IMG/VR virus record: IMGVR_UViG_3300028920_000039
Span: 71,047 to 135,046 of that record
Strand: one strand, 5' to 3'
From: a virus
DNA length: 64,000 bases
How positions within the stretch are numbered: the first letter of the stretch is position 1; the number at the start of each line of letters is the position of its first letter. Below the pieces are notes generated by a model. The model made no database searches. It saw only the letters and a list, made by a program, of their open reading frames with translations, and was not told the origin of the DNA. This document shows positions 15,721 to 17,528 of this stretch, one piece after another. The position numbers were made by a program, and so were the translations under genes.

Positions 15721-17528
15721 TGGATCTGTATAGGCTACTACCCGCAGTGCTTCGCTTGAAGGACTCTGCCACTAAAGGCAGTGTTTCAGAAGGCATTATC
15801 GAGCGTTTAGTGTATGCACTTGAACAGGAGAGCGACGTCACCAATGATGAGGTTGCAGGCCTGCTTGATCTGATCAACGCTGATGAGTGCGATGGTCAGT
15901 ATTTGTTGTATATCTCCTTAACGCTTGGCTTCGCTGTTTCAGATACCGACACTTCCCCTACTCTTGACTTTTCTCGTTGGTTTGTCAAGAACTTGATTTC
16001 CTTCTACAAGATCAAAGGCACCCACCCGTCATGGATCAAGCAGTGGTCCTACGTCGAGAACGAGCCCACTATGCGAGCGTGGGAGCTGTGGAAGGATGAG
16101 CCATATGAGAGGGGCCCTTACTATCGATACGGCGAGGATGAAGGTGACTACTATCAGGGTATCATCCACGCTGCTCGGTTTGATCTGTATCGGTTGGTAG
16201 CCGGCAACCCCGTCTTTTTGTCAGTACTGGAAGCATTTCCCCATGTCAATCCGATAGAGTGGTGTCGGCCCATCCATGTACTGCTCCGGAAGAACTACTA
16301 TCTGACAACCATACGTGATGCACCTGACGCTAACCTCCAGGAGGATTTGGATCTCATCGCCGCCCTGCGGTTGTTAGATGAGATGGATCCGCCGGAAGAT
16401 GAACTTTTCTTAGAGGTGCTATGCATCACTTCTTGTGAAACCTATTGTGAGCAGACCGAAGAATCCGGTTGTATGACGGGTTGTGAGGTTGGTTGCGAAA
16501 TAGGCATTGAGTGGCCAGGGCCGACAGGTGATACCGGTGATACAGGAATCGGTTGTCCGGCTTGCGAAGAAGCCATTATGTATGATGAGAACCAAGGAGC
16601 TCGTATTGCACAATTTGCAGTTGAGGATGGTGCTTGTTGGGAGGAAGGTGAAGAAGTTTGCTTGATGGTGCCTATACGCGACTTCATAGGGCAAGGCGTG
16701 ATCACAGACATCGCGTACATCAGCTACAACGACGTCGTGTATCCTATTCTTGAGGTGGAATTTCATGGTCCTATACCTGACTTTACGGGGTTTGCTGACA
16801 TAGGCATTGATCCAGGAGATGCTGATCATGGTACAGTTTGTCACGGAATGTGCATCTGTCCTGCTTGTGAGGAAACGGAGATTCATGACTACAGTGCCGG
16901 TGGCGGAGGTTGGGTTGAGTTCAGAGCTTACCTGCCTCATTGTTGGGGTGTTGGTGAGACTGTTTGTGTCTACATTCCTGATCTTGGATACATGATTGAA
17001 GGGGAGATCAGTGCCAGACGGTTTGATGATCCATGGACCGTGTACCGTGTAGTGTCAGGCTCTCTCGGTTCCGATCCTACCGGATATGATGCAGTTGTGT
17101 GTCATGGGATGTGTCCTCCTCAAGGTGAGACAGGCGATACGGGCAATACGGGTGGGACAGGCGATACGGGCAATACGGGTGACACAGGCGATACGGGCGT
17201 TGGGGAAACCGGTCCTACAGGTTTGCAAGCAGGTCCGACAGGAGAAACAGGTCCGGCAGGCGGCACACGTGGTCAGACGGGTCTAACAGGAGATACAGGA
17301 GATACAGGAGATGATGGTGAGGATGGTGAGGATGGTGGGACAGGCGATACGGGTGACACAGGTCCGGTTTACAATCCTACCTTGCACAGTATGGATGTTA
17401 TCATCAATTTGCGCCTAGACACCAAAGACTATCAGTATCTCCCTTGTAATGTACAAGTGATACCTGGAACAGGAACCGGCACCTGGACTACTTGGGAAAC
17501 AGGAACTGGTTGCCCGGCTCCTGCTTGA
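15720..17528 (+). CDS. P2 gpI-like baseplate/fibre protein with six-Cys motif, duplicated Cys-rich domains and Gly-X-Thr collagen-like repeats
   Basis: N-terminus paralogous to 14992-15720; CITSCETYC...CMTGCEVGC; two 'CPACEE...CW..GE.VC...VCHGMC' domains; GDT/GNT/GET/GPT repeats. Confidence 0.75.
17122..17370 (+). repeat. collagen-like (Gly-X-Thr)n coding repeat
   Basis: [25 protein letters not shown]...[26 protein letters not shown]; repeated 'acaggcgatacgggcaatacgggt' and 'acaggagat'. Confidence 0.9.

Follow-up and report, generated by a model that had tools for sequence, protein, structure and literature searches.

A radical SAM/SPASM enzyme and Cys/Glu arrays of phage baseplate fibre proteins as a candidate thioether cross-linking system

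Thioether links formed by radical S-adenosylmethionine (SAM)/SPASM enzymes have been described in several systems. In the SCIFF peptides Tte1186a and CteA, Cys32 was reported to be joined in vitro to Thr37, five residues away, and the in vivo link of CteA was mapped to Thr34 (PMC8326336). QhpD forms Cys-Asp and Cys-Glu thioethers within a protein subunit (PMC8326336), and the 28.8-kDa protein CrpA of Methanococcus voltae receives ranthionine links from CrpC (Dieter et al. 2026, PMC13692751). Because of QhpC and CrpA, substrates of protein size are not unprecedented (PMC13692751); a full-text search of the literature found no paper on radical SAM modification of phage virion proteins. Here we examine a six-Cys motif in a 602-amino-acid (aa) fibre protein, together with a radical SAM/SPASM gene downstream of it, in a 64,000-nucleotide (nt) stretch of viral DNA (positions 71,047 to 135,046 of IMG/VR record IMGVR_UViG_3300028920_000039). 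This whole 64-kb stretch is called the window, and positions refer to it unless stated otherwise.

From comparative sequence analysis we propose that the motif probably carries a thioether ladder installed by this enzyme. The more specific picture, six overlapping C-x4-E thioether rings in the fibre protein, we hold to be between evenly balanced and fairly probable. For the widest form of the proposal the arguments are about equally weighted on both sides: phages of anoxic sediments, myovirus-like as well as siphovirus-like, would use a dedicated radical SAM/SPASM enzyme to turn (Cys-x4-Glu/Gln)n arrays of baseplate and tail-tip proteins into overlapping thioether rings, two to six of them here and about 150 per chain in relatives.

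The Cys/Glu motif and its carrier

The initial annotation placed a six-Cys motif at nt 16422-16499, and these coordinates are exact: the translated open reading frame (ORF) holds the 27-residue sequence. It consists of two C-x3-C-x3-C triplets at residues 235-259 of the 602-aa ORF. Each of the six Cys has a Glu five residues further on (i+5), and because the last of these is E264, the functional unit extends to nt 16511. When the 22 Cys of the protein were placed at random, at least two C-x3-C-x3-C triplets arose in 21 of 20,000 placements. Glu at i+5 of six out of six motif Cys has a probability of ~3e-7 given 8.3% Glu, and +5 is the sole offset at which the residue is uniform. Together with the conservation described next, these statistics show that the motif is real and no product of chance.

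Conservation is concentrated on the Cys and their partners. Among homologues with 39-79% identity, C235, C239 and C251 never vary, C243, C255 and C259 are kept in all covering homologues but one, and the residues between the motif Cys vary freely. The close subclade keeps all twelve Cys/Glu positions; in homologue L001, C243 and E248 are both gone. Ahead of the first Cys lies an acidic stretch with alternating hydrophobic residues, whose D227 is invariant and whose pattern is kept in the homologue alignment (A4). The features of the fibre locus are as follows.

12942..14990, + strand: Baseplate J-like protein, 682 aa (PF04865, E=2.3e-07), directly 5' of the two gpI-like genes; synteny kept in all relatives
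14992..15720, + strand: gpI-like paralogue a, 242 aa (PF09684 Tail_P2_I, 31 bits against a cutoff of 20.6)
15682..15711, + strand: C-terminal mini-array of paralogue a, C231-x3-C235-E236-x3-E240; both of its Cys have Glu at i+5
15720..17528, + strand: gpI-like paralogue b, the fibre protein, 602 aa
16395..16421, + strand: acidic/alternating-hydrophobic stretch, aa 226-234, that precedes the first Cys (consensus D-x-[LF]-x-[LVIM]-[ED]-[VI]-x)
16422..16511, + strand: six-Cys/six-Glu dyad array of the fibre protein (C235, C239, C243, C251, C255, C259 and E240, E244, E248, E256, E260, E264)
16518..16550, + strand: first short collagen-like G-x-y stretch, visible in the sequence directly 3' of the motif
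16563..17105, + strand: two repeated beta-rich domains, aa 282-350 and 370-462 (internal repeat; AlphaFold2 pLDDT 60-80)
17112..17369, + strand: long collagen-like G-x-T region, aa ~465-550 (PF01391, 24.4 bits, below the cutoff of 27.2; PHROG tail-fibre families to E=3.7e-14)

The fibre protein thus runs from a gpI-like domain (aa 1-190) through a 40-residue linker to the Cys/Glu motif, followed by a short G-x-T stretch, the two beta domains, the long G-x-T region and a small C-terminal tip. It has no direct match to PF09684 or TIGR01634, but it is homologous to paralogue a (32% identity over 258 aa, E=7e-29), its relatives match PF09684/TIGR02242, and the order Baseplate_J-gpI-gpI is conserved among them. 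The G-x-T periodicity is plain in the window protein despite its sub-threshold PF01391 score, and homologue L004 reaches 54 bits; the first G-x-y stretch is far longer in L022, L237, P0003 and P0004. The description of the carrier as a structural protein is therefore borne out by a gpI-like baseplate domain encoded right after Baseplate_J and by collagen-like repeats that match PHROG tail-fibre families. By homology and gene order the 602-aa protein is a baseplate-anchored fibre, with the motif where the fibre leaves the baseplate domain. The AlphaFold2 (AF2) model of the motif region has a pLDDT of ~23-25, too low for a structural reading.

Each beta domain is bracketed by C-P-A-C-E-E ... C-W ... 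V-C ... V-C-H-G-M-C. The domain is ~90 aa long and present in two copies in the window, and L237 has at least three copies between long collagen-like spacers. Its Cys, which break the i+5 rule, have the look of metal or disulfide sites.

Paralogue a had been said to end in a shortened version of the motif, and its C-terminal 11 residues do align with the first two motif Cys. The tail gives two pairs, C231-E236 and C235-E240, and its pattern C-x3-C-E-x3-[E/D] is kept in the paralogue orthologues of L019, L020 and L237. Two other proteins of the same genome have tails of related appearance. A 141-aa ORF without PHROG match (genome positions 26869-27294, L230:70-495) ends in A-C-A-S-Y-C-E-V-S-D-E-S, that is C-x3-C-E with D rather than E at +5 of the second Cys, and may be a further mini-array. 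The major head protein (phrog_138, E=4e-55; genome positions 67581-69044, L229:582-2045), encoded 3.5 kb before the window, has an extra S-C-D-P-A-C-P-A end. This S-C-x3-C tail is absent from the capsid proteins of four relatives that bear the radical SAM gene; it was taken to be lineage-specific and was not counted as part of the system.

Array family, register and co-occurrence with the enzyme

C-[E/Q/T]-x-x arrays make up a large family, of which the window motif is a minimal example. With the arrays masked, the carriers split into 39 ORFs of a gpI-like family and 10 ORFs of a second, unrelated one (900-1470 aa, without Pfam match); in the members of the latter that were examined (L049, L051, L228), the carrier lies two genes after the tape-measure gene in a siphovirus-type tail module. 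Arrays are also inserted inside the gpI domain (L044, L046), and some proteins are nearly pure array, with 131 Cys in 648 aa in L043 and 151 Cys in 739 aa in L041. No Pfam family was found on the non-gpI carriers, and their only PHROG match is phrog_6085, a family of unknown function, on L043. NCBIfam target-repeat models gave no match at E<=1 to five gpI-type array carriers. Because arrays sit on at least two unrelated carrier families and also make up near-pure array proteins, it is the array, not the carrier, that tracks the enzyme. This distribution makes an artefact of shared ancestry less likely, though many of the contigs are related.

Two side observations concern the carriers and their neighbourhood. 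In the array carriers at L025:2690-4222 and L025:4994-9262, on a metagenome contig, the part upstream of the gpI-like domain contains poly-Ser tracts that extend over hundreds of residues. In G003, G004, G010 and G011, a segment in 670-967-aa frames elsewhere in the phages shares 40-50% identity with residues ~145-250 of the major head protein; in G004 the frame with this segment lies at the Baseplate_J position, which suggests that a capsid protein and a tail-region protein have a common inserted domain.

The enzyme and the genes around it are placed in the window as follows.

19030..23316, + strand: multi-glycosyltransferase with GT8-like repeats and a C-terminal methyltransferase, 1428 aa (PF01501, PF13578)
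23286..25697, + strand: radical SAM/SPASM protein (aa ~84-457) fused to a GT9-like domain (aa ~473-787), proposed maturase, 803 aa
25690..27422, + strand: orf281, orf152 and orf143, kept directly downstream of the radical SAM/GT9 gene in relatives; orf152 and orf143 are paralogues (phrog_5417)

Viral contigs were surveyed in three ways, starting from the carrier, from the enzyme and from Baseplate_J. With near-identical sequences collapsed, an array and a CteB-like radical SAM/SPASM enzyme, the latter accompanied by GT9, occur together on about 25 distinct contigs, and no contig with adequate sequence carries only the array or only the enzyme. In the carrier-first survey, all homologues have Cys-every-fourth arrays right after the gpI-like domain, in both paralogues and usually far longer than in the window (72 Cys in L002:9363-10946). 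Each locus with enough downstream DNA has the radical SAM/SPASM gene (36-41% identity by tblastn), followed by GT9, orf281 and orf152/orf143. The sole record without an enzyme match, L003, stops before the enzyme position; it matches L002 with 99.9% identity through the second gpI gene, after which a 2.3-kb insertion follows.

The enzyme-first survey retrieved 79 viral loci by radical SAM alignment. All close homologues (at least 31% identity) with a usable upstream flank have a large same-strand array ORF of the C-[EQT]-x-x type 0-10 kb upstream; L030 and L035, which have no upstream flank, were left out of this judgement. Distant radical SAM genes are mostly without large array proteins. Starting from Baseplate_J, the close clade (at least 40% identity) always has gpI and arrays, and the enzyme wherever the sequence reaches, and the 27 loci that have only a distant Baseplate_J and at least 6 kb downstream have neither array nor enzyme. 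An additional array-first scan of viral contigs for the DNA pattern yielded mostly perfect 12-bp tandem repeats in spurious short ORFs. Its four real arrays comprise two on known contigs, one on G007 together with the enzyme, and one on G006 whose ORF runs off the contig end. The link between motif and downstream enzyme drawn in the initial annotation thus holds across relatives: Cys spacing is conserved, arrays and radical SAM gene occur together in every testable contig, and no counter-example with the motif conserved and the gene missing was found among contigs with adequate sequence.

The layout of these loci also bears on whether a separate small precursor peptide is the real substrate, as in a classical system of peptides synthesized ribosomally and then modified post-translationally (RiPPs), for instance a phage signal or toxin, the fibre motif being coincidental. 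Precursor-like ORFs do occur beside distant viral radical SAM/SPASM genes: a 96-aa ORF with 21 Cys at every fourth residue (L071:8681-8968) and ORFs of 66-67 aa with 6 Cys in L075 (L075:9545-9745). Because of these small ORFs, phages appear to have both peptide-size and protein-size substrates. At the loci considered here, however, the carrier stop and the enzyme start are separated by 4 to ~340 nt in L049, L038, L053, L036 and L041, which leaves no room for a separate precursor, and no further Cys-every-fourth ORF is present. A six-frame scan of the window likewise found no other coding-strand ORF with such a run. We therefore regard a separate precursor as highly improbable.

The repeat register was analysed over 56 carrier ORFs. 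Neighbouring Cys are spaced by 4 in 1388 of 1911 pairs and by 5 in 212, and in spacing-4 units the residue after Cys is E in 47%, Q in 26% and T in 13%. The boundaries of the runs are more telling about pairing. E/Q/T stands at +1 in 95% of internal Cys, but in only 29% of the first Cys of a run (185 true run starts; background 20%). Conversely, position +5 of the last Cys is E/Q/T in 83% of 144 true run ends (E 67, Q 46, T 6), against only 13-30% at +2, +3, +4, +6 and +7. From these run starts and ends it follows that n Cys are matched by n E/Q/T at i+5 and not at i+1. The alternative registers E-x-x-C (i-3) and C-E (i+1) were rejected, as they fit the run boundaries worse and leave unmatched partners. 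The i+5 Cys/Glu register adds support, at the level of sequence, for a donor-acceptor pairing.

Register and co-occurrence together bear on a second alternative, namely that the motif is an ordinary structural Cys cluster and that the enzyme modifies another protein, a sugar or a host target. The cluster could be a helix-turn-helix hairpin with at most three disulfides (twin C-x3-C, as in small Tim proteins), or a metal or disulfide knot that nucleates or locks the collagen-like helix. The two symmetric triplets with their 7-residue, Gly-ended linker would suit such an architecture, as would the G-x-y stretch that starts ~8 residues past the last Cys in all close homologues and the further Cys pairs of the fibre protein that resemble metal or disulfide sites. 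AF2 tentatively makes the second triplet helical (pLDDT ~25), and eukaryotic C-x3-C repeats exist without such enzymes. A structural cluster would nevertheless leave unexplained the strict linkage of arrays to the enzyme over two unrelated carrier families and two tail types, as well as the Glu at i+5 of every Cys, also past the last Cys of each triplet. Furthermore, the i+5 residue lies off the helix face of Cys i, and dozens of Cys at period 4 should not be able to hold a straight stripe on an alpha helix. The loss of a single Cys in L001 would leave a disulfide hairpin with an odd Cys, and disulfides would be expected to be unstable in reducing sediment. On balance we consider a purely structural role quite improbable.

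The enzyme and the proposed ring formation

The enzyme has the radical SAM motif C-x3-C-x2-C (C95/C99/C102), invariant in six homologues, and matches PF04055 with 69 bits against a cutoff of 29.5. Seven SPASM Cys (345, 363, 398, 401, 407, 411, 430) are likewise invariant in the six homologues, and the alignment to CteB spans the SPASM domain. Its best hidden Markov models (HMMs) are those of the PapB, QhpD, nif11 and SCIFF maturases (E=1e-57 to 1e-49). PapB (NF047865), the top NCBIfam match, has E=2.7e-57 and 194.5 bits against a cutoff of 340, and QhpD (TIGR03906), the second-best HMM, has E=1.8e-55 and 188.4 bits against 453. Then come nif11 (TIGR04064, 185.7 bits against 518.7), SCIFF (TIGR03974, 166.5 bits against 425) and the CXXX-repeat maturases (TIGR04115, 84.7 bits against 350). 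RumMC (94 bits) and anSME (91 bits) score far below the thioether-type maturases. Among solved structures the best relative by sequence is CteB (5WGG, E=5.9e-73), with 249 bits against 88 for anSME. The AF2 model of the enzyme (pTM 0.79) retrieves 5WHY/5WGG as the top Foldseek matches (E=1.6e-25, TMt 0.78), then anSME. By sequence and predicted fold, the enzyme is a complete radical SAM/SPASM protein nearest to ranthipeptide-type maturases rather than to sactisynthases or anSME.

The GT9-like domain makes up the C-terminal third of the protein and is a separate adjacent gene in relatives. It has remote similarity to lipopolysaccharide heptosyltransferases around the sugar-nucleotide site, which is silent on the acceptor. 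Co-folding of enzyme residues 1-470, with three 4Fe-4S clusters and SAM, and fibre residues 205-275 gave ipSAE values of 0.01 and 0.00, a result that counts neither way.

Two genes of relatives contain intein-like insertions. In G003 (163.7 kb), the radical SAM/SPASM homologue at L012:151-2739 (- strand) has a ~300-aa insertion directly before the C-H-R-E SPASM Cys; it starts with C-F-A-G-D-T-K, has an HNH-like middle, ends in V-H-N followed by Cys, and looks like an intein. The Baseplate_J protein of several relatives, such as that at L002:6292-9342 (+ strand), has a ~335-aa insertion (C-L-T-G-D-T-V ... V-H-N-C) at a site corresponding to about residues 60-70 of the window Baseplate_J, a second intein-like element of the same phage group, this time in a structural gene; split Baseplate_J matches are also seen in L004 and L040.

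In the mechanism that we propose, the motif would be the built-in core of a protein-scale RiPP-like system, on which the radical SAM/SPASM enzyme (23286-25697) would act post-translationally, between the gpI-like domain and the collagen-like stalk; paralogue a (242 aa) would offer its two-Cys tail as a further substrate. The radical SAM cluster would take a hydrogen atom from the side chain of the residue at i+5 (Glu here; Glu, Gln or Thr in relatives), and the Cys sulfur, bound to an auxiliary SPASM cluster, would close the thioether. Because their side-chain carbons adjoin a functional group, as in known ranthionine acceptors, Glu and Gln are plausible acceptors. The predicted rings are 235-240, 239-244, 243-248, 251-256, 255-260 and 259-264. 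The outcome would be a short, stiff, non-reducible and protease-resistant neck where the fibre exits the baseplate, a unit that relatives would have lengthened to ladders of tens to ~150 rings. We infer both the ring topology and the mechanical role; in marine sediment, thioethers would be expected to outlast disulfides. The GT9 partner and neighbouring glycosyltransferases may then glycosylate the fibre.

The strand upstream of the first Cys would serve as recognition element. A similar strand, D-x-[LF]-x-[LVIM]-[ED]-[VI]-x-C, precedes the arrays of gpI-type carriers, and the second carrier family has a different conserved strand at this place, h-x-F-x-L-R-L-P-x-W-x-G-C. By analogy with leader strands that pair with the N-terminal sheets of maturases, we propose that the pre-array strand may be an internal, leader-like recognition element.

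The initial annotation saw in the motif an in-protein substrate of the downstream maturase, so that RiPP chemistry would act on a 602-aa virion protein rather than on a short peptide. Co-occurrence, the i+5 register and the enzyme family support the first part and the structural nature of the carrier the second; that the enzyme acts on the motif, that thioethers form and that the protein is part of the virion is what we infer from them.

Nor need the chemistry be the one drawn here. The enzyme might act on the array by a chemistry or register other than a C-to-E(i+5) ranthionine ladder, such as sactionine formation (S to C-alpha), use of another partner residue, interchain links in a trimer, Cys oxidation or preparation of sites for the fused GT9. 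Co-occurrence is silent on chemistry, the enzyme scores under the cutoffs of all families, and a GT9-like protein, absent from known ranthipeptide systems, invariably accompanies its radical SAM part as a partner or in a fusion. The conflicting ring assignments of CteA, Thr37 against Thr34, would also leave room for another register (PMC8326336), and the collagen-like region right after the motif implies a trimer. Against this, the n-to-n count of Cys and Glu at i+5, limited to E/Q/T, fits acceptance by a side chain that bears a functional group next to the linked carbon, the situation in ranthipeptides (PMC8326336), and the nearest relatives by HMM and structure form non-alpha thioethers. We judge a different chemistry on the array to be rather unlikely.

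Several points weigh against the thioether ladder. The putative modification is read from sequence comparison, and only homology and gene position place the 602-aa protein in virions. The enzyme is related to all named maturase families and, being under every curated cutoff, a member of none. Its N-terminus is modelled as a beta hairpin (residues 37-50) and a low-confidence loop, in which the helices of a canonical RiPP recognition element (RRE) are not seen; the hairpin aligns non-significantly to CteB residues 6-29. Most contigs with gpI-like carriers and the enzyme belong to one phage clade, so independent events are fewer than contigs. In the window the enzyme lies 5.8 kb downstream of the fibre gene, with a 288-aa Cys-rich ORF, another ORF and the 1428-aa glycosyltransferase between. 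Cys-x3-Cys arrays lacking such enzymes are represented in Pfam by C_tripleX (mostly C. elegans; a weak match), a Cys cluster beside a collagen-like helix could be a disulfide knot, and the i+5 Glu after a run might in principle be the relic of a decayed repeat unit.

If the thioether ladder is confirmed, a virus particle would for the first time be known to be cross-linked by enzymatic radical chemistry. Virion post-translational modifications would gain a new class, and ribosomally made protein fibres a new, poly-stapled kind. RiPP-type radical chemistry would then be a viral structural tool as well, beyond small secreted peptides, that sets non-reducible staples into host-recognition machinery, and it would account for rigid fibres in reducing habitats where disulfides fail. 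The C-x4-E code and its enzyme could serve chemists who build poly-cyclic segments of any length. The proposal is falsifiable, as the i+5 rule predicts every ring, and the six-dyad motif of the window would be the smallest tractable test substrate, short enough for direct mass spectrometry.

The window is the final part of a single 135,046-bp viral contig rated complete; nearly all its long ORFs are on the + strand, and positions 10.5-27.4 kb form a myovirus-type baseplate/fibre block. Among public sequencing runs the stretch occurs in one, a marine sediment metagenome that is its probable source, and no RNA sequencing run containing it is listed. A search of genome contigs found no relative that would indicate a prophage. 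In isolate phages, tblastn with the 602-aa fibre protein gave no match, and radical SAM matches are only distant (<30% identity).

Some neighbouring genes deserve mention. The phrog_5417 paralogues (152 and 143 aa; 26522-27422) and orf281 always trail the radical SAM/GT9 gene, as seen in L001, L005 and L007, and may be part of the same module. The 1428-aa GT8-like/methyltransferase protein, which sits between the fibre genes and the radical SAM gene, is missing at that place in most relatives; in L004, a weak match to the N-terminal part of this protein is located ~8 kb downstream of the gpI genes. Directly after the fibre gene, the 288-aa ORF (17533-18399) has 18 Cys, with C-C-C-D-P-C near its N-terminus, no period-4 array and no family match, and may encode a tip or receptor-binding protein rich in disulfides. 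Another radical SAM gene (41405-42091; 228 aa, weak PF04055, too short for SPASM) lies in the DNA-metabolism part and is unrelated to the fibre system.

Comparison with known systems

As judged by sequence, the phage system resembles the maturation of ranthipeptides, QhpC and CrpA and is outside every named family. With the SCIFF systems (CteA-CteB, Tte1186a-Tte1186; 5WGG/5WHY) it shares the radical SAM domain and two-cluster SPASM layout of the enzyme, Cys at every fourth residue of the substrate, and an i+5 distance equal to that of the in vitro Cys32-Thr37 link. The proposed phage substrate, in contrast, is a 602-aa protein with the motif in its middle rather than a ~45-aa peptide with an N-terminal leader and a C-terminal six-Cys core, and at E<=0.1 its NCBIfam matches are collagen-like adhesins only, with no SCIFF-precursor match. 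Its acceptor would be Glu/Gln instead of Thr, and in the phage motif no Cys is left unmatched, whereas SCIFFs were found to have only one link. The phage enzyme also differs in being phage-encoded, fused to GT9 and without a clear RRE.

In QhpC, which serves the active site of an enzyme, there are three links and the loops are larger and irregular, whereas the phage motif is a regular repeat in a virion protein. What the two systems have in common is a SPASM enzyme that forms thioethers inside a protein subunit and not in a released peptide (PMC8326336). CrpC-CrpA is similar in that a SPASM enzyme places ranthionine links on a full-size, Cys-rich repeat protein encoded in the same gene cluster, with the Cys before the acceptor and an N-terminal protein region recognised. 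CrpA, however, has a 17-residue repeat, C-x-x-[Q/D], with the acceptor at i+3, and CrpC belongs to TIGR04463 (PMC13692751). CrpC-CrpA is moreover a cellular, non-viral system with a suspected metal-related role.

In freyrasin, the PapB-PapA product, the dyads are C-x3-D; the phage motif instead has a further Cys at i+4 and its acid one residue later, at i+5. The likeness to PapB-PapA would lie in six thioethers from six Cys to acidic residues within one short segment (PMC8326336). The CXXX-repeat system (TIGR04115) likewise combines targets that have Cys at every fourth residue with a radical SAM/SPASM maturase; the phage carriers differ in being large tail proteins. A functional analogy, finally, is the chain-mail of the HK97 capsid, in which covalent links stabilise a phage structural protein. 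HK97 uses autocatalytic Lys-Asn isopeptides between capsid subunits, whereas in the model proposed here thioethers would be formed inside tail proteins, by a radical enzyme dedicated to the task.

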